This document shows, one piece after another, positions 13,151 through 43,040 of a stretch of 64,000 nt of DNA. The position numbers and the translations under genes were made by a program. The stretch is from a phage. The notes beneath the pieces are model-generated. The model was not told the DNA's origin. It searched no databases and saw only the letters and a program-made list of their open reading frames with translations. Numbering within the stretch: the first letter of the stretch is position 1; each line of letters opens with the position of its first letter. Where the stretch lies: sequence record PZ445432.1, one strand, 5' to 3'.

Positions 13151-13179
13151 ATTATACAGAAAAATTTTCCTGAAAGCAA
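13151..13179 (-). promoter_or_regulatory. sigma70-like promoter
   Basis: Reverse complement gives TTGCTT, 17 nt, TATAAT. Confidence 0.5.
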
Positions 13180-33760: not shown

Positions 33761-34582
33761 ATGGGTAAATTACAAAAACAAATACTACCATATATAGATT
33801 ATATCCGAGAAATTATAGAGTATAATCCCTATACTGGTAAATTATTCTATAAGCCTAATAAATATAAGAATAAAACTTGGCATACTTTATATGCTGGGAG
33901 AGAAATATGTAGTAAGAACTCTGATGGGTACATCAGAGTTAGTTTGCTCTTAGATAATAAACCCACAATTATTTATGGACACCGAATAGCGTGGCTCCTT
34001 CACTATGGGGAGGAACCACCTGCTATGATTGATCATATAAATACTATACCGTGGGATAATAGAATTATTAACCTAAGAGAGACAAATTTTAAGTTAAACA
34101 GACTTAATACTAACAAAACGGTAGGTGTAGAGCTGCTGCCAGAAGGATTTGTGTACAGCATTACATTAGGTGAAAAGTTTTTTGTATCCCCCGGCTTCCC
34201 CACTTTCGAACAAGCTAAAGTGGAAAGAGAAAAACTAGTAAATGGTTTATGTAATGCAGAAATTGGGAAGCAGACCAATATTCTAATAGACGATGTTAGA
34301 GATTTACCTGAAATGTCCATTATTTGTCGTACAGTTATAGGTGCGCTGGAACTATCAGATGTGTTTAGTTTCACAGGATCCTATTTATTTATGGACTCAG
34401 ATTTAGGAGATTCAGAGGTACAAGGAAAAGATTTATTAGATCATATACTATTATTAGGTCAAAGACCCCTAAAAGTGATTCTAGTAACATCTAATCCTGT
34501 TGACGCAGAGTACATGAGAGGTACTCTTACGTCTTATGGATACCGAGAAAATCCCAATAGATTAGAATATGATCTATTTTAA
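33761..34582 (+). CDS. HNH homing endonuclease
   Basis: GHRIAWLLHYGEEPPAMIDHINTIPWDNRIINLRETN HNH motif. Confidence 0.7.
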   Translation: MGKLQKQILPYIDYIREIIEYNPYTGKLFYKPNKYKNKTWHTLYAGREICSKNSDGYIRVSLLLDNKPTIIYGHRIAWLLHYGEEPPAMIDHINTIPWDNRIINLRETNFKLNRLNTNKTVGVELLPEGFVYSITLGEKFFVSPGFPTFEQAKVEREKLVNGLCNAEIGKQTNILIDDVRDLPEMSIICRTVIGALELSDVFSFTGSYLFMDSDLGDSEVQGKDLLDHILLLGQRPLKVILVTSNPVDAEYMRGTLTSYGYRENPNRLEYDLF

Positions 34583-34594
34583 GGAGTAAAAAGA

Positions 34595-35044
34595 ATGAAG
34601 GCAGCTTTGCTTTTAGTAGCTGCCCTTACCTTCAGCTTCAATAGTCATGCGACCTACGACTCAAAGCAGATTGATTGCATTGCAAAAAATATCTACTTCG
34701 AAGCACGAGGTGAGGGCATAAAGGGAATGACGGCGATTGCACACGTTACTAAAAACCGTGTTAACTCTGGTACTTTTCCTGATTCTTACTGTAAAGTAGT
34801 ATATCAGTCTAACCAGTTCTCTTGGGTATCTAAGAGACCAAAAGTTGATAAAACTGATGAGGCTTGGAAAACCGCCAAGAATTTAGCTAGAGTGATATAC
34901 TACGTTGATTCACCACAAGATCCTACACATGGAGCGTTATACTTCCATAGTGGTAAAGATAAACCGCGCTGGACAAAGAAGTTTAAGAAAACAACTAAGA
35001 TTGAGGGACATACATTTTATAAGCCTGTTGTCACTAAAACTTAA
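34595..35044 (+). CDS. secreted cell-wall hydrolase (SleB/Hydrolase_2-like)
   Basis: Signal peptide MKAALLLVAALTFSFNSHA, then NIYFEARGEG ... AHVTKNR ... YCKVVYQ.NQFSW blocks. Confidence 0.55.
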   Translation: MKAALLLVAALTFSFNSHATYDSKQIDCIAKNIYFEARGEGIKGMTAIAHVTKNRVNSGTFPDSYCKVVYQSNQFSWVSKRPKVDKTDEAWKTAKNLARVIYYVDSPQDPTHGALYFHSGKDKPRWTKKFKKTTKIEGHTFYKPVVTKT

Positions 35045-35052
35045 AAATTTAT

Positions 35053-35081
35053 TTGCTTAAATACTTAAACTTCTGTATAAT
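35053..35081 (+). promoter_or_regulatory. sigma70-like promoter
   Basis: TTGCTT, 17 nt, TATAAT. Confidence 0.5.
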
Positions 35082-35112
35082 ACTTTCATAAATTAATGAG
35101 AGGAAGCGAAAT

Positions 35113-35283
35113 ATGAAAAACTTGATCGTCATTGGTGTTAACACTCGCGGTATTCGTACTACGAAAACTGTTAAAACTTCTAACGTTGCTGAGATCACTA
35201 CGAACCCTAAAAAGTTTGATTTCGCCAAAGTCTCAGCAGTTATGACAGAACAATCTTTTAACCAAGCGTTAGGAATGAAATAA
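35113..35283 (+). CDS. hypothetical small protein (56 aa)
   Basis: ATG preceded by GAGAGGAAG; stop overlaps the next start (TAATG). Below the track's size cut-off. Confidence 0.4.
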   Translation: MKNLIVIGVNTRGIRTTKTVKTSNVAEITTNPKKFDFAKVSAVMTEQSFNQALGMK

Positions 35284-35726
35284 TGGGAGAGAATATTTTA
35301 GATGTTTTGCGTAGAGCTTTGCAGGATTCTAAGTTTAATGGTTCTGATAAAGAAGTCGCTAAAAGCTATCAGACCATAATCGGGGATCTTCAGCGTATTG
35401 ATAAAGATTTCATCACTTCTGAACAATTTGTGTCTTATCTCAAAGCTCAACTAAAAAGCATTAACCAGATGAAAGCTAAACTTCATGGTCAAGATCTTGA
35501 TAGTTATAGCTTGCAGTCCGCTCAGTATGAATACATTCTAAATAAGTGGTTGCAGGAGTATCTGCCTCCTCAGTTATCTGATACTGAGATTCGTAAATAC
35601 TTTGCAGAATTAGTTAAGCTAAACCCTGGAATTACAAAAGGTATGCTGATGAAAGCGATTAAGGAAGAATTTCCTGGGCGTTATGATGGTGGTACTGCTG
35701 CTCAGATTGCTGGCGAATTTAATTAA
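35283..35726 (+). CDS. GatB/YqeY-domain protein
   Basis: 147-aa ORF with the YqeY-like pattern (YLP..LS..E ... G..KG..M ... DG..A) next to the tRNA cluster. Confidence 0.55.
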   Translation: MGENILDVLRRALQDSKFNGSDKEVAKSYQTIIGDLQRIDKDFITSEQFVSYLKAQLKSINQMKAKLHGQDLDSYSLQSAQYEYILNKWLQEYLPPQLSDTEIRKYFAELVKLNPGITKGMLMKAIKEEFPGRYDGGTAAQIAGEFN

Positions 35727-35734
35727 AAATTTAT

Positions 35735-35763
35735 TTGCTAAATGCCTATAAATTCTGTATAAT
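35735..35763 (+). promoter_or_regulatory. sigma70-like promoter facing an ORF-free RNA region
   Basis: TTGCTA, 17 nt, TATAAT. Confidence 0.5.
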
Positions 35764-35769
35764 ATATTA

Positions 35770-36559
35770 ATAAATTAGAGAACAGCGGGCCGATTACGCT
35801 GAGTGCAGAATCCAAACCGGAGTGCATTGAATAGAGTCGGTGGGTTAGTTGTAAAACTAGTACACAGTGGGCGGCAATCCCGGTTAGTGGCTAGAACGTG
35901 TAAAATGGGGCGTCTGAAACCTCTCCCCTAAACTCTTCTCTAGTTTATAAATAGTGGGGTGTGGAAATCACTTATGTAGTAACACTGCCGATCTAGTATA
36001 AACGGTATTATCAAGCCGTAACTGGTGGAAGATGTAGGTTCGAATCCTACGATCGGTAAGAACTGGATAACTGGTGCTTTTAACGTAAAAGCTTCCGAGG
36101 TTAGTTGCGCACTGCCTAAACCACGCGGTAGTTGGTTCCAGACTAACCAACCAGTCTGCTGAATAGTTTTATTACGATTTAACTATGTCCAGGCTAAAGA
36201 AGAACTTTAGAAGGTATTCTAGGTGGTGAAGTTTTTCCTCCATATCGGAGTAGTTTTTCAAGCTACCAACAAAGTGGGAAATGCTGACATGAGAGATGTC
36301 ACTAATGGTGCACAATAGCACAGGTAATTCGCGATAACTCCTGTTGAGTAGCAGCAAAAGGCGGGAAGTCATGACCCCAAGCCTAACCGAGTCCTCAATA
36401 TACCGCAGGACATAACCACTAAGTCACCCTGACTTAAACTGGAAAATAATAGACGTTACTGTATTTTGTCTTGAAATACTTAATGAGTGAGACTTATGAC
36501 TCTCCCGGTATCGTCTGTATTTTTAAGAGTTTTTACGAGAGTTCTTAAAAATACTTAAA
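35770..36559 (+). ncRNA. ORF-free transcribed region, possible stable small RNAs
   Basis: About 800 nt with no plus-strand ORF, downstream of a consensus promoter; contains several hairpins and tRNA-like fragments. Confidence 0.3.
35987..36058 (+). tRNA. tRNA-like element (possible pseudo-tRNA)
   Basis: Acceptor stem GCCGATC/GATCGGT and T-arm GTAGG-TTCGAAT-CCTAC are intact, but no canonical D or anticodon stem could be folded by hand. Confidence 0.3.
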
Positions 36560-36634
36560 CGGGGTGTAGTCTAAGGGAGAGGCAGGAGTCTTCTAAATTC
36601 CTTTATGCAGGTTCGAATCCTGTCACCTCGGCCA
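36560..36634 (+). tRNA. tRNA-Arg (anticodon TCT)
   Basis: Acceptor CGGGGTG/CACCTCG, anticodon stem GGAGT/ATTCC with loop CTTCTAA, T-arm GCAGG-TTCGAAT-CCTGT, encoded CCA. Confidence 0.6.
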
Positions 36635-36668
36635 ATTTTATTAACTGTAACTAAAACAAAGGAAATAT

Positions 36669-37616
36669 ATGTTTAATACTAAAAATATGAAAGAACTGAC
36701 TTCTGAGCAAAAAGTAATTCGCACTATTAAACGTTGGGGTATTGGTTCTGTAGTTGGTTTAGCAGGTTTAATCCTAGCTTTTAATTCATATACTATTGTT
36801 TCTGATGGTACAGTTAAAACCCAAACATTTCTGGGTAAAGTAGATCCTAACCCAGTATTACCTGGTTTCCATCTTGTAAACCCATTTGCATCTTTCGATA
36901 CTTTTAGTACAAAAGATATTGCTGTAAAATTAGATAAACTTCAGGTTCCTAGCCAGGATAAGTTTAAATCCACTGTTGACCTGACTGTTATGTTGCAGTT
37001 TGATGGTTCTAAGGCACCGATCAACCGTATTAATGCAGGTACTCAGGATCAGGCGTTAGACAAATATGTTACTGAAAAATTACTGTCTACCATCCGTGAG
37101 TTTGGTAAGTCTGTACCTAAAGCACAAGATTTGTTTGATGCTAAAATTCAAGCACAATTACAAACTGCAATTCAACAGGAAGTTGAAGAGTATGCACGCC
37201 CTTATGGTTACACAGTTAAGCAAGTGTTCCTTCAGGATATTACATTGCCACCGGTAATTATGGAACAGGTACAGAATACCAAAGTTCGTGAAGAACAAGT
37301 TAATGCTGCGAAAGCTGAATTGGCTCGTGTTGAACAAGAAGCACAGCAGAAGGTTAAACAAGCAGAAGCAGATCGTGAAGCTCGTAACAACCAAGCTATT
37401 GCAAACGAACGTGATGCAGATGCTAAACTGTATGCAGCTAAGAAAGAAGCCGAAGCTAACGCCGCTCTGCAACGTACTATTACTCCTGAGATGATTCGCT
37501 GGAAACAACTAGAAGTTGAAATGACTCGTGCTCAGAAGTATCAAGGTGGTGTGCCTCAGACTGTAGTAGGTACTGGTTACGATGGTCAAATGATCATGGA
37601 TATGCGTAACAAGTAA
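36669..37616 (+). CDS. SPFH/band-7 (prohibitin/HflC-like) membrane protein
   Basis: N-terminal transmembrane segment, then a long Ala/Glu/Gln-rich coiled coil typical of SPFH proteins. Confidence 0.5.
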   Translation: MFNTKNMKELTSEQKVIRTIKRWGIGSVVGLAGLILAFNSYTIVSDGTVKTQTFLGKVDPNPVLPGFHLVNPFASFDTFSTKDIAVKLDKLQVPSQDKFKSTVDLTVMLQFDGSKAPINRINAGTQDQALDKYVTEKLLSTIREFGKSVPKAQDLFDAKIQAQLQTAIQQEVEEYARPYGYTVKQVFLQDITLPPVIMEQVQNTKVREEQVNAAKAELARVEQEAQQKVKQAEADREARNNQAIANERDADAKLYAAKKEAEANAALQRTITPEMIRWKQLEVEMTRAQKYQGGVPQTVVGTGYDGQMIMDMRNK

Positions 37617-37639
37617 TAGTTACACGTAATCTTCGAAGT

Positions 37640-37680
37640 AAGCCCTGTGTTCCCTGGAGAGCGCAGGGCTTTTCTGTTTT
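37640..37680 (+). terminator. rho-independent terminator
   Basis: AGCCCTG ... CAGGGCT hairpin followed by TTTTCTGTTTT. Confidence 0.55.
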
Positions 37681-37842
37681 AAGGTAGAGGATAAGTGTGT
37701 CTCTTTGGTCACTCAGCTATGACAAATACTTTACACTATATCACATTGAAAATCAAGTGGGGATAACAATTTTGGGGTCTATCCACTTACCTGCTACCCT
37801 TAAGCATCCTGTTATTTTCCTCTAAAAAGTTAAAAAATTCAA

Positions 37843-37871
37843 TTGCTTGAATGCTAAATTCTCTGTATAAT
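37843..37871 (+). promoter_or_regulatory. sigma70-like promoter
   Basis: TTGCTT, 17 nt, TATAAT. Confidence 0.5.
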
Positions 37872-37903
37872 ATACTTATAAATTTGAGAGAGAGGAATCT
37901 AGT

Positions 37904-38422
37904 ATGACTGTTGATGAACTAACAGAACATCTCTTATCTAGAGGGTTTGATACAGATAAGTATCATTGCTGGTTAAGTCCGGAAGGATGGCTAACAGTCC
38001 CGTTGTATGACTTCTCTGGGATGTTGAGAGGCTATCAGACTTATAATCCTTCTGCTCCAAAAGGTCATGGTAAGTGCCCCTTTGAAGCTAAATATTTTAC
38101 TTATTCAACTACACAGTGTGTATGGGGATTAGAAACTCTCAATGGAGATGAAAAAGTAGTATTGATTGCTGAATCTGTATTTAAGGCAGTTGCGTTACAT
38201 AACGCTGGTTATCCAGCCCTGGCAATGTTGGGTTCTTCCCCCGGAAAAGCATTGTTAAAGCAATTGAAATTATTACCTTTTAAATTGGTAGCTGTCGGAG
38301 ATAATGATCCTGCGGGTGAAAAATTTGCTAGAAAATTAAACGGCTTTGTTTCTCCTGTAGATGTAGATGAGATGTCTACCGAAAACTTGAAAAATTTTCT
38401 TGCTATGAAGCTAAATTTCTAA
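37904..38422 (+). CDS. Toprim-like domain protein
   Basis: VVLIAESVFKAVALHNAGYPALAMLG ... VAVGDNDPAGEKFARKL resembles a TOPRIM fold. Confidence 0.45.
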   Translation: MTVDELTEHLLSRGFDTDKYHCWLSPEGWLTVPLYDFSGMLRGYQTYNPSAPKGHGKCPFEAKYFTYSTTQCVWGLETLNGDEKVVLIAESVFKAVALHNAGYPALAMLGSSPGKALLKQLKLLPFKLVAVGDNDPAGEKFARKLNGFVSPVDVDEMSTENLKNFLAMKLNF

Positions 38423-38442
38423 TATAATATATTTATAAATTC

Positions 38443-38531
38443 GGAAGAATAGCATAACGGTATTGCAGCAGATTGCTAATCTGTCGGTTTGAAATATAGC
38501 CTTGTGGGTTCGATTCCCACTTCTTCCGCCA
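38443..38531 (+). tRNA. tRNA-Ser (anticodon GCT), type II
   Basis: Acceptor GGAAGAA/TTCTTCC, 3-bp D stem, anticodon loop TTGCTAA, long variable arm, T-arm GTGGG-TTCGATT-CCCAC, encoded CCA. Confidence 0.7.
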
Positions 38532-38537
38532 AATTCT

Positions 38538-38615
38538 GGTTCTCAAGCTCATATGGTATGAGCACCCAGCTCATAACTGGAAGGTACGTAGGTTCGAATC
38601 CTCGGGGAGCCACCA
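38538..38615 (+). tRNA. tRNA-Met/Ile2 (anticodon CAT)
   Basis: Acceptor GGTTCTC/GGGAGCC with G-U pairs, D stem GCTC/GAGC, anticodon loop CTCATAA, TTCGAAT T-loop, encoded CCA; T stem has mismatches. Confidence 0.5.
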
Positions 38616-38634
38616 AATTAAATAAGGACAACTA

Positions 38635-38823
38635 ATGGAATTATTCATAGTTTCTGTTAAATTTGCACAAGATAGAGAACGTTCGGATGAGTTTAAACAA
38701 GGGTACAGACTAGTAAAGGCTACATCTGAACTCCATGCTATGGACAAAGTAGTAGACTATATGTATAATGTAGAAGATGTTTACTACGTCAATGCTTTAG
38801 AAGCCTCAAAAGTAATTGACTAA
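38635..38823 (+). CDS. hypothetical protein
   Basis: 62-aa ORF with RBS AAGGA. Confidence 0.45.
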   Translation: MELFIVSVKFAQDRERSDEFKQGYRLVKATSELHAMDKVVDYMYNVEDVYYVNALEASKVID

Positions 38824-38832
38824 GGAGACTAT

Positions 38833-39018
38833 ATGTCTAAGTTTCAAGAACTCAAGCAAGAGCTAGAAGAATGTGCCTGCCCTGAGTGTAGAGGAATTGG
38901 TGAAAGTTCTGATGCAGAAGCAGTGGATACTTTTTGCAATATCTGGGTTTGCCCAAATTGCAAGGGTACAGGTATTAATCCTAACTGTGGTATTTCTCTA
39001 GATATTGAAAGAGGATAA
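38833..39018 (+). CDS. hypothetical zinc-ribbon protein
   Basis: CPECRG ... CPNCKG double CxxC; RBS AAGGAG. Confidence 0.45.
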   Translation: MSKFQELKQELEECACPECRGIGESSDAEAVDTFCNIWVCPNCKGTGINPNCGISLDIERG

Positions 39019-39120
39019 TACCTGTGAAACTAAAAGATTATTATATTGGTTGGTTTGTGGGACTAGTAGTAGGATTTTCACTAGGCTATAATATGTATCA
39101 ACTAATAAACTGATTACATG

Positions 39121-39193
39121 GGGGTGTAATCGAATTGGCATAGGTACTGTACTTAAAATTCAGGTTTTGTGGGTTCGAATCCCAGCGAGGCGT
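39121..39193 (+). tRNA. tRNA-like element (anticodon-like loop TAA; acceptor stem does not pair)
   Basis: Good T-arm (GTGGG-TTCGAAT-CCCAG) and anticodon-like hairpin CTGTA-CTTAAAA-TTCAG, but no 5'/3' acceptor pairing found; a -10 TATAAT lies upstream. Confidence 0.25.
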
Positions 39194-39241
39194 AACTGCC
39201 TGGTGTGATAGAGGCATCATTCCACTAATATTGGAAAACTA

Positions 39242-39472
39242 ATGAAACGAAAATTAAAAAAATCTTATATAATTAAGATAAATAAGCTAAGAAGTAGGGC
39301 AAAAGGATGGCCACTTCGGATATTAATTGCGGATAACCATATTAGATACCATGCGGAACAACGTCATTATAAACAGTGGGAGTCATACTGCCGCTCAAAA
39401 GCAGGTCGTTTAGATGGATCTTATGAGTTTCTATTTGGTAAGAAGCCTACTAGAGTAGCTTTAGGTAATTAA
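39242..39472 (+). CDS. hypothetical basic protein
   Basis: 76-aa ORF. Confidence 0.4.
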   Translation: MKRKLKKSYIIKINKLRSRAKGWPLRILIADNHIRYHAEQRHYKQWESYCRSKAGRLDGSYEFLFGKKPTRVALGN

Positions 39473-39477
39473 TACTT

Positions 39478-39568
39478 GGAAGAGCAAATCGAATTGGCGA
39501 CGAAAACCGCTTGGAAAGTGGCTGACCGGTAAAACGGCTTGAGAGTTCAAATCTCTCCTCTTCCGCCA
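39478..39568 (+). tRNA. tRNA-Ser (anticodon GGA), type II
   Basis: Acceptor GGAAGAG/CTCTTCC, anticodon loop TTGGAAA, long variable arm, T-arm GAGAG-TTCAAAT-CTCTC, encoded CCA. Confidence 0.6.
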
Positions 39569-39580
39569 AACAATTTATAT

Positions 39581-39675
39581 GGTAGGTCAATCCAACGGCT
39601 GGCGCTGGACTCCGACTTGAAATCGGTTGATCGTAGTGATACGGTGTAAGGGTTCGATCCCCTTACCTACCTCCA
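39581..39675 (+). tRNA. tRNA-Ser (anticodon TGA), type II
   Basis: Perfect acceptor GGTAGGT/ACCTACC, anticodon loop CTTGAAA, variable-arm hairpin CGTA-GTGA-TACG, T-arm AAGGG-TTCGATC-CCCTT, encoded CCA; D-loop unusually long. Confidence 0.5.
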
Positions 39676-39812
39676 AATCTTGAAGTATGCCGGAATCGGT
39701 AGACGGGGCTGCCTAAAAGGTTTATAGGGAACATCCACTCCCTGCAACATACCTCATAAAGCGGCTGAGATAAATGGTCTATCTCGTGAAGGTTCAAGTC
39801 CTTCTGCTTCTT
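39676..39812 (+). other. tRNA-like or structured RNA region, unresolved
   Basis: Contains a T-arm-like hairpin GAAGG-TTCAAGT-CCTTC and D-loop-like AATCGGTAGA, but no acceptor pairing could be found. Confidence 0.2.
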
Positions 39813-39927
39813 GATACATCTATGGCTCAAAGTGTAACGGTGCTATTTGATGCTCTTGGTAAGACTTCCCCGACATGCGTTCGGGAGTAAGCTGCTAAGA
39901 CTAGAGTAGAAGAGTTTCTGAGAGCCG

Positions 39928-40046
39928 CCACAATTGAAAATTCGTACTCGTCTTGAGCTGCGTGCAATAGGAGATAACTTGATTAGTATTCTAGAACATG
40001 CTAATTGAGGATGGTTTCGCTAACCCTGCGAGTTTTCAATTGTGGC
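39928..40046 (+). repeat. 13-bp perfect inverted repeat bracketing a 93-nt spacer
   Basis: CCACAATTGAAAA at 39928-39940 and TTTTCAATTGTGG at 40034-40046; the right arm overlaps the tRNA-His 5' end. Confidence 0.6.
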
Positions 40047-40117
40047 TATATCATAATTGGTTAATGATCCTGATTGTGAATCAGGCCTATGTGGATTCGA
40101 ATTCCACTAGCCACCCC
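40042..40117 (+). tRNA. tRNA-His (anticodon GTG)
   Basis: Acceptor GTGGCTA/TAGCCAC, D stem TCAT/ATGA, anticodon stem CCTGA/TCAGG with loop TTGTGAA, T-arm GTGGA-TTCGAAT-TCCAC, encoded CCA. Confidence 0.7.
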
Positions 40118-40143
40118 AAATTAACTTAAATAGGAAATAAAAT

Positions 40144-40341
40144 ATGGCTGATTTCTGCAAACAATGCTCCATTGATATGTGGGGCAGAGATACTGGTGAT
40201 CTTTCTGGTTTGATTACAGAAGCCGAAGTCAAAGAAGGTTATGGTGCAGTTGTGGTTTGCGAAGGATGCGGAGTTATTCGAGTAGATCATGAAGGCAAAC
40301 GTTTAGAAGAACCGGAAAATTTAGGAGAAACAAATGAGTAA
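40144..40341 (+). CDS. hypothetical zinc-ribbon protein
   Basis: CKQC ... CEGCG motif; RBS AGGAAA. Confidence 0.45.
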   Translation: MADFCKQCSIDMWGRDTGDLSGLITEAEVKEGYGAVVVCEGCGVIRVDHEGKRLEEPENLGETNE

Positions 40342-40570
40342 TGCTTTAATTAGTGAAATTATGTTAACACGTCTTGCAGAACTGCAAACTCTTCGAGATG
40401 AATCTCAGAATAACTTATCCTACCATAAACAGATGGTAGATACTCTTACTACTCGTATTGAAACTTACGAGCGTGATATTGCAGCATTACAAGCTCTTTT
40501 CTCCGTATCAGCACCAGATACGTTAGAACAGCCTGCTGTATCTCAGCCAGTAGAGACAGCATCTAGTTAA
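40334..40570 (+). CDS. hypothetical protein
   Basis: 78-aa ORF with RBS AGGAGA. Confidence 0.45.
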   Translation: MSNALISEIMLTRLAELQTLRDESQNNLSYHKQMVDTLTTRIETYERDIAALQALFSVSAPDTLEQPAVSQPVETASS

Positions 40571-40579
40571 TAGCATTTT

Positions 40580-40655
40580 TGGAGTGTAGATCAATTGGCA
40601 GATCGTCGGCCTCTGACTCCGAAGGTTCCTGGTTCGATCCCAGGCACTCCAGCCA
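40580..40655 (+). tRNA. tRNA-Gln (anticodon CTG)
   Basis: Acceptor TGGAGTG/CACTCCA, D stem GATC/GATC, anticodon loop CTCTGAC, T-arm CCTGG-TTCGATC-CCAGG, encoded CCA. Confidence 0.6.
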
Positions 40656-40661
40656 AATAAT

Positions 40662-40737
40662 TGGAGAGTAGTGTAACGGTTAGCACAACGGCCTTTGACT
40701 CCGTTAATGGTAGGTTCGATTCCTCCTTCTCCAGCCA
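40662..40737 (+). tRNA. tRNA-Gln (anticodon TTG)
   Basis: Acceptor TGGAGAG/TTCTCCA, anticodon loop CTTTGAC, T-arm GTAGG-TTCGATT-CCTCC, encoded CCA. Confidence 0.6.
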
Positions 40738-40744
40738 AAATAAT

Positions 40745-40819
40745 GCGTGATTAGTTCAGTGGCTAGAACAACTGGCTTCCAACCAGTAGACACGAGTTCG
40801 ACTCTCGTATCCCGCACCA
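40745..40819 (+). tRNA. tRNA-Gly (anticodon TCC)
   Basis: Acceptor GCGTGAT/ATCCCGC (one mismatch), D stem GTTC/GAAC, anticodon stem ACTGG/CCAGT with loop CTTCCAA, T-arm ACGAG-TTCGACT-CTCGT, encoded CCA. Confidence 0.65.
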
Positions 40820-40833
40820 AATAAGGAATCTCT

Positions 40834-41085
40834 ATGCACGTTTTTGAGTTTCGTAATAAAAGTACCAATAAACGAGTTATTGTTATTGGGGAAACATATC
40901 GAGCATATGAACAAACTGACGGCTCTGTTATCTTGAATGATGAGAAAGGGGGTTTTAGCTTTTATCCAGAAGAACCTTATGAAGAGTTTCGAAAACAATT
41001 TAACCTAGACTGGAGAAAGCATTTAAACACTGTTGCTTCATCTGTAGTACTGCCAACTACCAGTACTGTACTATCTAATGGCTGA
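40834..41085 (+). CDS. hypothetical protein
   Basis: 83-aa ORF with RBS AAGGAA. Confidence 0.45.
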   Translation: MHVFEFRNKSTNKRVIVIGETYRAYEQTDGSVILNDEKGGFSFYPEEPYEEFRKQFNLDWRKHLNTVASSVVLPTTSTVLSNG

Positions 41086-41242
41086 TAACCTAAAAGTCAA
41101 GATCGACAAACAAAAGAAACGTGTAGAAGTAGAGATTGGTGAAGAACGTGTAGCCTTCACCTTTGAATTTCTACAACAAATGGCAATGACAGTTATGACT
41201 GATAAGTCTCCTGTTATTGAAAAAGAAATCCCGTTGAAATAA
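41078..41242 (+). CDS. hypothetical small protein (54 aa)
   Basis: ATG overlapping the upstream stop; below the track's size cut-off. Confidence 0.3.
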   Translation: MADNLKVKIDKQKKRVEVEIGEERVAFTFEFLQQMAMTVMTDKSPVIEKEIPLK

Positions 41243-41250
41243 CGGGTTCT

Positions 41251-41337
41251 GCTGGGTTGGCAGAATGGTTGAATGCACCTGATTTGTAATCAGGAGGAGT
41301 AATCCCGTTGCAGGTTCGAATCCTGTGCCCAGCACCA
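41251..41337 (+). tRNA. type II (long variable arm) tRNA, anticodon reads TGT (Thr?)
   Basis: Acceptor GCTGGGT/GCCCAGC, 3-bp D stem, perfect anticodon stem CCTGA/TCAGG with loop TTTGTAA, variable-arm hairpin GGA-GTAA-TCC, TTCGAAT T-loop, encoded CCA. Confidence 0.5.
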
Positions 41338-41351
41338 ATTTAAGGACTATT

Positions 41352-41519
41352 ATGTTTAAACTGTTAGTAGTTATCTGGTATAGTCAATCAAATAGAGCGA
41401 ATACCTCCCACGTTATAGACTTTACTACTAAAAATGAAGCTGAAAAAGCATATGCTAATTTAATAGAACGCAATAAAGAATCTCGTAGTATAGTTTATGA
41501 AGTGACTAAACTTTATTAA
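41352..41519 (+). CDS. hypothetical protein
   Basis: ATG with RBS AAGGAC just after the tRNA; the track ORF begins earlier, inside the tRNA. Confidence 0.4.
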   Translation: MFKLLVVIWYSQSNRANTSHVIDFTTKNEAEKAYANLIERNKESRSIVYEVTKLY

Positions 41520-41527
41520 AAATTCAT

Positions 41528-41556
41528 TTGCTTTCCCTCTTATTTATTGTTATAAT
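41528..41556 (+). promoter_or_regulatory. sigma70-like promoter
   Basis: TTGCTT, 17 nt, TATAAT. Confidence 0.5.
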
Positions 41557-41586
41557 ATTTATATAAATTAATGAGAGGGAAACCAA

Positions 41587-41877
41587 ATGAAACGTTATCT
41601 TTCTGTTATGTTCCAAACCGGCGGCCAAAGATACACCTATGAATTTCCACCTTCCTGGAAAATCAGGGAAGGTGATCAAATAGTTGTGTTGACACCGCGT
41701 GAAGAATATAAAGTAGTGACGGTTAAACAAGTATTTCCAAAAGATCATGAACCAGCTATAGGCATCCGATATAAGATGATTCATGGCGTGGTTCGTCAAG
41801 TACCACGAACTGAGGTAGAAGTAGATAATACTGGAGAAACTAAATTCCATTATACTTCTTACTTAGACAGTGTGTGA
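41587..41877 (+). CDS. hypothetical protein
   Basis: 96-aa ORF directly after a promoter-leader cassette. Confidence 0.5.
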   Translation: MKRYLSVMFQTGGQRYTYEFPPSWKIREGDQIVVLTPREEYKVVTVKQVFPKDHEPAIGIRYKMIHGVVRQVPRTEVEVDNTGETKFHYTSYLDSV

Positions 41878-41892
41878 TGTAAATATTTTAAT

Positions 41893-41969
41893 GCTTCGGT
41901 AGCTTAGCGATCTAAAGCACTCGGCTGATAACCGAGAGATCAGGGGTTTAAATCCCTCCCGGAGTACCA
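41893..41969 (+). tRNA. tRNA-Ile (anticodon GAT)
   Basis: Acceptor GCTTCGG/CCGGAGT, D stem GCTT/AAGC, anticodon stem CTCGG/CCGAG with loop CTGATAA, T-loop TTTAAAT, encoded CCA. Confidence 0.65.
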
Positions 41970-42065
41970 AATCTAGGAATTAAGACTATGCGTCCAGGAA
42001 AGTTTAAAAAAGCTAGTTGGTCTAAAGAGTACAAAGAATACTTACTTAGCCTAGTAAAACGTAAT

Positions 42066-42141
42066 AGTTAGTTGGCAGAGTGGTTATGCGCCTCCTTCAT
42101 ACGGAGCGACTACAGTGGTTCAAATCCACTACTAACTACCA
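42066..42141 (+). tRNA. tRNA-Met/Ile2 (anticodon CAT)
   Basis: Acceptor AGTTAGT/ACTAACT, anticodon loop TTCATAC, T-arm AGTGG-TTCAAAT-CCACT, encoded CCA. Confidence 0.6.
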
Positions 42142-42154
42142 AACAGGAGATCTA

Positions 42155-42523
42155 ATGAAAGCGTATCAAAATCTTAAATCTGGCGTAATTAATATTGTTC
42201 ATAATAATCAGATTATTCAACTGTACTCTAAAGATGGTGAACTTAAACAAAAGGTTCTAGTTGAAGATCTAGATGGTATCACACCTCATTTTGACCCAGA
42301 ATCCTTTCGTGAAGTCAAAGTGGAAGTCGCCCCTCAAATTGAAGGTGGTCAACACCTAAATGTCAATGTGTTAAGTCGTGATCAGCTTTTGGATGCGCAG
42401 AAACATCCTGAAAAATACCCTCAATTAACTATCCGTGTTTCAGGGTACGCTGTGCGTTTTAACGCACTGACGCGTGAACAGCAGAACGACGTTATTAGTC
42501 GTACATTTACTCAGGCGATGTAA
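42155..42523 (+). CDS. grcA: autonomous glycyl-radical cofactor (GrcA/YfiD-like)
   Basis: C-terminus [12 protein letters not shown] ... [37 protein letters not shown] closely matches the GrcA/pyruvate formate-lyase glycyl-radical domain; RBS AGGAGA. Confidence 0.8.
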
Positions 42524-42604
42524 TGGGGCTTGGATACGGTTTCTACGAACTACGTAAGGTAGTCGAGCAAACTCCATTTATCTCCCAAGTTTTAGGAGAA
42601 ATGT

Positions 42605-42919
42605 GTGGATCGAGCATTAAGACGTCATCACCGGCAACGTGTAAAGAACAACCGCAAGAAGTATTGGACAGTCTTCCCACATGAAGAAAGCCCTAAACGG
42701 TTAGGTATTATCACTACTACTCCTTGTATCTGTTCTTGTTGGATGTGCGGGAACCCTCGCAAACACTTTAAGAATAGTAAAGCAGGGATGAAAACCTCGG
42801 AGATTAGGAAAATGGAAGCAATGATTACGGATATTTCAAATGATGAATTTGATGGCTTCGTAGGATTCGGGGAAGATATTAGCTCGGACTGTTTCGAAGA
42901 TGAGCTCCCAGGTCTATGA
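42605..42919 (+). CDS. hypothetical protein
   Basis: GTG start 6 nt after AGGAG; basic N-terminus and a CxCxC segment. Confidence 0.4.
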   Translation: MDRALRRHHRQRVKNNRKKYWTVFPHEESPKRLGIITTTPCICSCWMCGNPRKHFKNSKAGMKTSEIRKMEAMITDISNDEFDGFVGFGEDISSDCFEDELPGL

Positions 42920-42928
42920 TTAATAACA

Positions 42929-42966
42929 AACCCCAGCTATTGAATAAGTAGTCTGGGGTTTTTCTG
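42929..42966 (+). terminator. rho-independent terminator
   Basis: ACCCCAG ... CTGGGGT hairpin followed by TTTTTCTG. Confidence 0.55.
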
Positions 42967-43040
42967 TATACAGGTAGATAATTTATGTATAATAAAATTC
43001 ATCCACATTAGGTTAATTCAAAAGACTTAATGGAGGTAAT

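Follow-up and report, generated by a model that had tools for sequence, protein, structure and literature searches.

Bacteriophage T4 carries, among its tRNA genes, two stable RNAs known as species 1 and 2 (RNA C and RNA D), which are released by tRNA-processing enzymes. In MALAT1/mascRNA, the bacterial Y-RNA-like YrlA and tmRNA, a tRNA-shaped non-decoding element is part of a larger RNA, where it could recruit RNase P or tRNA-binding factors. Small stable RNAs of phage T5 (RNAI, RNAIII, RNA1, RNA2H, RNAIV, rna2 and RNA3; records AY692264 and NC_047749) are also encoded among tRNA genes. GOLLD and ROOL are large ornate phage RNAs found near tRNA islands; they have variable linkers next to conserved cores, are not essential and assemble through kissing loops, and GOLLD sometimes embeds tRNAs (PMC12286853). 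Here we analyze RNAX, a structured non-coding RNA of about 790 nucleotides (nt) in Escherichia phage HildyBeyeler (Bas33), a T5-like member of the genus Tequintavirus, family Demerecviridae. The whole 64,000-nt stretch analyzed (record PZ445432.1), hereafter the window, is 100% identical to the HildyBeyeler record MZ501074.

Compared with these systems, RNAX is encoded among tRNA genes as the small T5 RNAs are, but whereas the latter and the T4 species measure 70-170 nt, RNAX has several domains and exceeds them 5-10-fold in length. Like GOLLD and ROOL, it is large, highly structured, phage-encoded and close to a tRNA island, with a conserved core and a variable linker. It differs from them in motifs and architecture, in its hosts (Enterobacteria) and phage family (Demerecviridae), and in that its multimerisation is a proposal. 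Neither the GOLLD model nor the ROOL model matched at E <= 10 in 35650-36720 or at E <= 1 in ten relatives, and RNAX is therefore outside both families. Its tRNA module is joined through an acceptor-side (leader-trailer) helix, whereas YrlA uses the anticodon side. No Rfam match to YrlA or tmRNA was obtained and no Ro/Rsr gene was present; ARAGORN reported no tmRNA in the window, and we found neither a tRNA-like domain formed by the RNA ends nor a tag-peptide open reading frame (ORF).

The region of interest is the gap between a YqeY-like gene (35283-35726, Pfam YqeY) and an SPFH/Band-7 gene (36669-37616). Its principal features are as follows.

35725-35763, + strand: T5 early-type sigma-70 promoter, with an A/T-rich upstream block, a -35 element TTGCTA, a 17-nt spacer and a -10 element TATAAT.
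35770-36559, + strand: RNAX, structured non-coding RNA of about 790 nt, very probably the ortholog of T5 rnaX (719 nt) and DT571/2 rnaX (636 nt).
36560-36634, + strand: tRNA-Arg(UCU) with an encoded CCA, called by both ARAGORN and Rfam; its 5' end sets the RNAX 3' end.

In the T5 record AY543070, this locus carries a misc_RNA named rnaX (product RNAX, 'stable RNA with unknown functions') of 719 nt, which runs from within 'promoter P 16-17' up to the last base before tRNA-Arg; this annotation comes from the group behind the T5 sequence. The same annotation is present in DT571/2 (NC_047749) and Salmonella phage 5 (AJ604531); another T5 record (AY587007) marks a pseudo-tRNA alone at the locus. 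The window element has the same position on the same strand, between the T5.081 (YqeY-like) gene with promoter P16-17 and tRNA-Arg(UCU), and matches the annotated RNAX of T5 and DT571/2 at 93-97% identity in blocks over 35931-36660 and at 95% over 35727-35781. Locus and 3' end are identical to those of T5, whereas the window copy has about 150 extra nt in its 5' domain (35782-35930) and lacks an 83-nt insertion that follows CCACUA in T5. By blastn, 230 phage records matched with at least 80% query coverage. We consider it very probable that the element is a selected, structured non-coding RNA orthologous to RNAX. RNAX is thus already in the T5 GenBank record, and what this analysis adds is its comparative multi-domain structure. 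Rfam has no family for it: tRNAs were all that came up when the whole window was scanned at gathering thresholds, the check suggested by a prior sequence-only reading of this DNA, and when the region and ten relatives were scanned by E-value. SpF41, mir-3167 and other weak Rfam matches fell far under their thresholds, overlap the tRNA-like element or an A/U-rich hairpin, and were rejected.

That sequence-only reading had singled out the region as a promoter-driven stretch of 900 nt without ORFs, a candidate locus for phage stable RNAs. Its observation is confirmed and its interpretation supported, although the feature is no discovery, T5 RNAX being known already. The RNA itself spans about 790 nt (35770/35777 to 36559), and the proposed end at 36660 takes in tRNA-Arg and the spacer before the next gene. 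The expectation of stable RNAs of unknown function beside tRNAs agrees with the annotation of the T5 ortholog, except that one long RNA is annotated rather than several small ones, possibly with cleavage at its internal tRNA-like element.

The canonical promoter which that reading had placed at 35735-35763 holds up: TTGCTA-N17-TATAAT is the top sigma-70 match within 35000-38500 and the orthologous T5 site is labelled 'promoter P 16-17'. Its family, TTGCT-N18-TATAAT, is represented 22 times in the window, where 0.08 copies would be expected. The predicted transcription start is at about 35770, and the annotated 5' end of T5 rnaX is equivalent to about 35777. The 22 family sites are spread over 9462-53972, and the one at 13151-13179 (- strand) matches what we take to be the core of the classic T5 PN25 promoter. 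The initial transcribed sequence of the RNAX promoter also occurs at several other family copies and is labelled 'repeat c' in AY587007.

The phage's own GenBank record suggests a different content. MZ501074 omits both RNAX and the tRNA-like element and places three hypothetical coding sequences (CDS) over RNAX, bas33_0080, bas33_0081 and bas33_0082 (window 35803-35931, 36025-36162 and 36172-36372), as expected if the region encoded small proteins. We checked ORF integrity in 19 close relatives. The ORFs at 36172-36372 (- strand) and 36223-36318 (+ strand) are broken in 17 and 18 of them, respectively, and that at 35803-35931 (+ strand) in 7, its segment being absent from T5; the breaks are 1-2-nt indels. 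ORF 36025-36162 is intact in 18 of the 19, which could be taken as support for coding, but it begins inside the tRNA-like element, its variable sites are distributed 4, 6 and 5 over the codon positions, and 1-nt indels within it in more distant relatives would shift the frame; it is intact because it overlaps the most conserved part of the RNA. Third-codon-position bias was seen in none of the ORFs among these relatives, and frame conservation together with such bias was found for none of bas33_0080 to bas33_0082. The absence of a real ORF, as the sequence-only reading had it, is thus borne out, since only ORFs of 25-66 amino acids (aa) overlap 35770-36559. Coding is extremely improbable, and almost certainly MZ501074 and records like it are in error in placing three 'hypothetical protein' CDS here.

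Evidence for structure comes from the fold and from covariation. The G+C content is 0.41-0.43 across the region versus 0.32-0.38 in the flanks, and the minimum free energy over 791 nt has a z-score of -2.96, lower than in 20 of 20 shuffles; structure, described in the sequence-only reading as multiple hairpins, thus exceeds chance, and covariation supports the fold. For comparison, we assembled 45 distinct variants from phage records, IMG/VR and metagenomes, covering Tequintavirus, Epseptimavirus, Sugarlandvirus and phage Eos. From transcription start to terminal hairpin, the unit measures 644-1296 nt among variants and is a mosaic of conserved blocks and variable slots. Helices were tested one by one, a naive all-against-all covariation scan being too noisy. 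In Domain I (37 pairs, 94.2% of alignment cells paired), 14 pairs changed on both sides, compared with 7.9 +/- 1.5 in shuffled alignments (reached in 0 of 500) and 1-3 in slid controls. In Domain II plus the terminal hairpin (56 pairs, 93.6% paired), 24 pairs changed on both sides, compared with 13.1 +/- 2.0 in shuffled alignments (0 of 500) and 5-13 in slid controls. The RNAX structure is under selection. The RNA folds into six parts: a dispensable 5' expansion domain, Domain I, a variable linker, Domain II, a small hairpin with an ACUGGAA motif, and a 38-nt terminal hairpin. Their elements, from 5' to 3', are as follows.

35770-35949, + strand: 5' expansion domain, in which helix P1 encloses a conserved hairpin and a variable insert.
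35954-36125, + strand: Domain I, closed by GUGG (35954-35957) with CCAC (36122-36125); RNAalifold consensus.
35967-36075, + strand: leader-trailer helix of 14 base pairs (bp), 35967-35980 with 36062-36075, which clamps the tRNA-like module.
35987-36058, + strand: non-decoding tRNA-like module, supported by ARAGORN, Rfam tRNA and covariation.
36076-36092, + strand: hairpin H1 (GCUUUU-AACGU-AAAAGC), 95.5% paired, two pairs with compensatory changes (UA/CG/AU).
36129-36268, + strand: variable central linker with lineage-specific hairpins, unalignable between genera.
36273-36420, + strand: Domain II, closed by AGUGG (36273-36277) with CCACU (36416-36420).
36360-36383, + strand: stem-loop within Domain II, with an 8-nt apical loop AGUCAUGA (36367-36374) inside the palindrome GUCAUGAC; the stem covaries.
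36422-36448, + strand: small hairpin AGUCA-CCY-UGACU followed by the motif UAAACUGGAARAUA, nearly invariant.
36517-36554, + strand: terminal hairpin of 38 nt, a 17-bp stem with G.U pairs and a UACG loop.

Conservation extends to another subfamily. A covariance model of Domain I detected Pectobacterium phage DU_PP_V (Mccorquodalevirinae), which was outside the training set, at 88.5 bits (E = 3e-20). The layout matches as well, with an early-type promoter, about 985 nt of non-coding sequence, a pseudo-tRNA, a 38-nt hairpin and tRNA-Arg, and a YqeY-like homologue (40% identity) lies upstream, so that both subfamilies have a YqeY-like gene in this place. The leader-trailer helix of DU_PP_V is preserved through new compensatory changes. 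In T5-like phages the helices that close the two domains read GUGG/CCAC without variation; their DU_PP_V counterparts are compensatorily changed to ACGG/CCGU, that of Domain II reading CACGG/CCGUG. The two closing helices (35954-35957/36122-36125 and 36274-36277/36416-36419) share their sequence, and the covariation fits pairing within each domain or crosswise between them equally well. The Domain II model (R2), applied outside its training set, scored T5 at 161.9 bits and ende at 44.4 bits. The leader/tRNA-like pattern was found in only 9 metagenome contigs and in 28 contigs of IMG/VR, of which T5-like phages account for most or all. The blastn matches outside Demerecviridae, in records named as Listeria or Campylobacter phages, are near-identical T5-like sequence and these records are probably mislabelled.

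Within Domain I, the leader-trailer helix was tested over 12 pairs, 6 of them changed on both sides, with 99.2% of cells paired; the leader of the tRNA-like element is 35 nt. The tRNA-like fragment pointed out in the sequence-only reading was recovered by ARAGORN at 35986-36059 and by the Rfam tRNA model at 35987-36058 (39 bits against a gathering score of 29; 25-35.5 bits in relatives, some below threshold). It has a 7-bp acceptor stem, a D-arm with an invariant GG in its loop, and a canonical T-arm, GUAGG-UUCGAAU-CCUAC, whose stem covaries. The anticodon arm is replaced by a short, irregular one, which the Rfam alignment treats as an 18-nt insert state and which has a 6-nt loop (GUAACU in the window, GUAACU or UUCACC among variants) in place of the 5-bp stem, 7-nt loop, U33 and purine 37 of an anticodon stem-loop. 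A long hairpin replaces this arm in Sugarlandvirus and in one metagenomic variant (L069), and a short-looped stem does so in DU_PP_V. The labels vary: ARAGORN calls Ser(act), SeC(tca) or Leu(tag) among relatives, and annotators have used pseudo-tRNA, tRNA-OTHER and tRNA-Sec. CCA is not encoded (base -1 is U and +1 is G). A fully paired acceptor stem with a free 3' end was not found either, pair 1-72 being open in 10 of 22 variants and pair 5-68 in 16 of 22, and both flanks of the module are held in the leader-trailer helix. Lacking an anticodon loop and CCA and having acceptor mismatches, 35987-36058 is therefore a structural tRNA mimic and not a decoding tRNA. We also considered a recent copy of a phage tRNA as its origin and rejected it: no tRNA of the window stands out, identities being 45-54 of 73 positions.

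In the 5' expansion domain, helix P1 (35770-35782 with 35936-35948) encloses a conserved hairpin, CAGCG..CGCUG at 35784-35802, and a variable insert at about 35806-35930; T5 and DT571/2 lack the insert and have just a bare P1 hairpin. P1 covaries, UUAGAGA/UCUCUAA being replaced by UUAGAUG/CAUCUAA in L047. In several Epseptimavirus phages, an HNH endonuclease ORF takes the place of the whole domain. Such HNH_3 homing-endonuclease-type ORFs, and a 169-aa ORF without a Pfam match inserted between terminal hairpin and tRNA-Arg, occur in Epseptimavirus relatives (L026, L028, L032, L034 and L025), and RNAX therefore appears to be an insertion hotspot for mobile ORFs. An insertion of about 83 nt inside RNAX, found in T5 (L004:1769-2143) and in one metagenomic variant (L068) at the place of window 36420/36421, is bordered by a direct duplication of about 23 nt (AGTCACCTTGACTTAAACTGGAA) that resembles a target-site duplication. 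In Sugarlandvirus phages the same slot is occupied by an insert of about 100 nt unrelated to it.

A degenerate tRNA that annotators call a pseudo-tRNA, in a dispensable mosaic region with insertions, deletions and homing-endonuclease ORFs, is also what would be left if the locus were evolutionary debris, that is, decayed tRNA genes and spacer that are transcribed through their position upstream of tRNA-Arg. Debris would not be expected to keep helices by compensatory changes beyond the tRNA-like element, nor invariant motifs and layout across subfamilies, as seen here; moreover, besides tRNA-Arg, the Rfam scan gave a single tRNA-like match even at E <= 10. We regard this explanation as very improbable and disfavour it relative to a selected RNA.

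Domain II contains five covarying helices (36285-36301; 36306-36309 with 36386-36389; 36320-36344; 36360-36383; 36391-36411), the fourth of which bears the apical loop. Neither the block AGTCATGACC (36367-36376) nor the apical sequence AGUCAUGACC, which has the palindrome inside, varies in any of 32 variants; the window itself reads GAAGTCATGACC at the apical loop. In DU_PP_V, GGAGTCATGACC is present and GGAGUCAUGACC is kept. The invariant palindromic loop may mediate homo-oligomerisation, a testable idea. Taken further, RNAX could be a self-assembling RNA-only particle of the GOLLD/ROOL kind, in which GUCAUGAC would make kissing contacts between copies, GUGG/CCAC might permit domain swapping, and the multimer would show or enclose tRNA-like modules. 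The size (644-1296 nt) and ornateness of a phage RNA in a tRNA island, the variable linker, the embedded tRNA-like element, the invariant loop block and its DU_PP_V counterpart, and the parallel change of both closing helices in that phage are all consistent with this possibility. On the other hand, the searches reported above gave no GOLLD or ROOL match in the window or the ten relatives, and an invariant loop gives no covariation, so that pairing between molecules looks the same as pairing within one, for example of the loop with the AGUCA..UGACU hairpin. Assembly of this kind seems to us unlikely, and we continue to favour a trans-acting accessory RNA.

The terminal hairpin lies 5 nt ahead of tRNA-Arg in the window and abuts tRNA-Arg in T5 too. 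It is 38 nt long in every variant where it was found, is followed by tRNA-Arg or by an inserted ORF, is 98.5% paired (UA and CG at one pair), and keeps its sequence across subfamilies (92.9% in DU_PP_V). Its G.U pairs make it strand-specific, which places its action on the level of RNA. As a repeated DNA site it was rejected, with one copy in the window. As an intrinsic terminator it was likewise rejected: the terminator scan did not report it, and it has an A/U-rich stem followed by UUAAAC instead of a G+C-rich stem and U-tract. A degenerate pattern of the hairpin searched in IMG/VR returned T5-like contigs and two contigs without tRNAs; the latter two are probably chance matches.

Beyond tRNA-Arg, which the sequence-only reading had correctly placed at the end of the stretch, the following features lie downstream.

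36669-37616, + strand: SPFH/Band-7 membrane protein gene.
37640-37671, + strand: terminator-like hairpin 3' of the SPFH gene.

The terminator scan found no + strand terminator-like site ahead of 37640, and the T5 record describes the place equivalent to 37640-37671 as an 'efficient bidirectional rho-independent transcription terminator'. The SPFH gene and this hairpin (36669-37671) probably close the RNAX transcription unit. Such co-transcription would also suit a cis-acting leader that governs processing, stability or expression of tRNA-Arg and the SPFH gene, for instance through a switch at the terminal hairpin. The hairpin is always directly upstream of the next gene, be it tRNA-Arg or an inserted ORF with a ribosome-binding site. 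Moreover, 36442-36448 can pair with the 5' strand of the hairpin (36518-36524) in 100% of 224 cells, and at the variable pair the alternative pairing (AU in 17, GC in 14, GU in 1) is better kept than the pairing within the hairpin (UA in 18, CG in 6, mismatched in 8). This hints at a conformational switch or a mutually exclusive structure, but amounts to essentially one substitution event along clade boundaries. In addition, a covarying structure of 650-1300 nt with a tRNA-like module exceeds the needs of any known leader, and RNAX is kept regardless of the downstream gene, which varies by lineage (tRNA-Arg, the 169-aa ORF, other ORFs). A leader function is accordingly rather improbable, and a trans-acting role remains the preferred reading.

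Concerning the tRNA-Arg gene, we also considered RNAX as its antisense and rejected this as chance: the best duplex energy, -48.1, is no better than the -49.7 +/- 3.4 of dinucleotide shuffles, and the complementary segments are not kept in other genera. The inverted repeats between the two are 35920-35934 with 36568-36582 (D-arm) and 36200-36213 with 36590-36603 (the whole anticodon loop, UUAGAAG versus CUUCUAA).

The genomic neighbourhood bears on function. A viable T5 st0 deletion (record AY692264) joins a point beside tRNA-Asp to the middle of the YqeY-like gene and takes out rnaX, tRNA-Arg, the SPFH gene and the TOPRIM gene. A similar deletion of about 8 kb defines the 'anti-defence island', or tRNA-rich region, of Azam et al. 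(bioRxiv 10.1101/2023.03.15.532788; PMC11555353). Among the products of this island are tRNA-Tyr, active against retron Ec78, and Rad ('retron anti-defence'), a TOPRIM protein; without the island T5 also becomes sensitive to AVAST 2, through a separate determinant (bioRxiv 10.1101/2023.03.15.532788; PMC11555353). RNAX is a large, covariation-supported multi-domain RNA, conserved across Demerecviridae and situated within a deletable tRNA-rich/anti-defence island. As an analogue of GOLLD and ROOL in T5, it would make the question of what large structured phage RNAs near tRNA islands do genetically testable, because T5 is tractable, infects E. coli K-12, has viable deletions (st0) and has close relatives in a curated collection (Bas33).

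We propose the following model. From the strong T5 early promoter, transcription would run through about 790 nt of non-coding RNA into tRNA-Arg(UCU) and then the SPFH gene. RNase P would generate the RNAX 3' end by cutting at tRNA-Arg +1, which fits the annotated 3' end of T5 rnaX, and a second RNase P cut could possibly occur at 35986/35987, ahead of the tRNA-like module (U at -1, G at +1). The released RNA would then act in trans as an accessory RNA of the tRNA-rich/anti-defence island, with the tRNA-shaped module, through its elbow and acceptor mimic, engaging a tRNA-recognising factor. Candidates for this factor are the YqeY-like protein of the phage, whose gene lies immediately upstream, and a host enzyme, either of tRNA-targeting defence or of processing. 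A trans-acting accessory RNA released by RNase P is the most likely function, and the account as a whole (RNAX ortholog, modular RNA, trans-acting accessory) is in our judgment likely the best explanation. That tRNA mimicry or decoy action is the mechanism we put forward tentatively, as a possibility below even chance. More speculative, and on balance unlikely, is that RNAX joins GOLLD and ROOL as a third class of large 'ornate' phage RNA, unrelated to either, and is an RNA machine or decoy that would either multimerise via the palindromic loop or serve as a non-cleavable tRNA mimic neutralising a tRNA-directed host defence. In such a reading, and just as doubtfully, RNAX could be the determinant against AVAST 2 that Azam et al. 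report for the T5 island.

Several points weigh against this account. On the structural side, the measure of 'further pair types' was not significant (94 of 500 shuffles for Domain I, 126 of 500 for Domain II plus terminal hairpin), and the sequences are related, several covariations representing few events; the number of independent events is therefore modest. Domain II of DU_PP_V was detected weakly, at 10.2 bits with filters off, at the expected place. For the tRNA-like module, the acceptor mismatches G1.A72 and U5.U68 occur in most variants, and the leader-trailer helix may hinder RNase P. As to function, no observation in this analysis links RNAX to a defence system or binding partner, and since T5 st0 is viable without rnaX, RNAX is dispensable in laboratory hosts. 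The label 'stable RNA' is a GenBank note: our literature search found no RNAX paper, and no open-access text found, including the anti-defence island papers and the CRISPRi-ART T5 screen, mentions T5 RNAX.

Other features of the surroundings are as follows. The 172-aa TOPRIM-domain protein at 37904-38422, a homologue of T5.076, is probably Rad; its neighbourhood is inside the deletable island of about 8 kb (T5 st0, T5n). At 33761-34582, a 273-aa ORF combines cREC_REC ('cyclic-phosphate processing receiver') and HNH_3 endonuclease domains and is called 'intein-containing' in GenBank, and in DT571/2 the equivalent place is taken by a 105-aa form that lacks the insert. The sequence at 38538-38612 matches the Rfam tRNA model at 38.2 bits, was missed by ARAGORN, and is given as tRNA-Met in GenBank and as tRNA-Ile(CAU) in the T5 and DT571/2 records. 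Finally, the small stable RNAs of the T5 records lie among tRNA genes (T5 st0, L074:3288-6087), and their orthologs are probably located in the tRNA cluster of the window at about 38600-43000.

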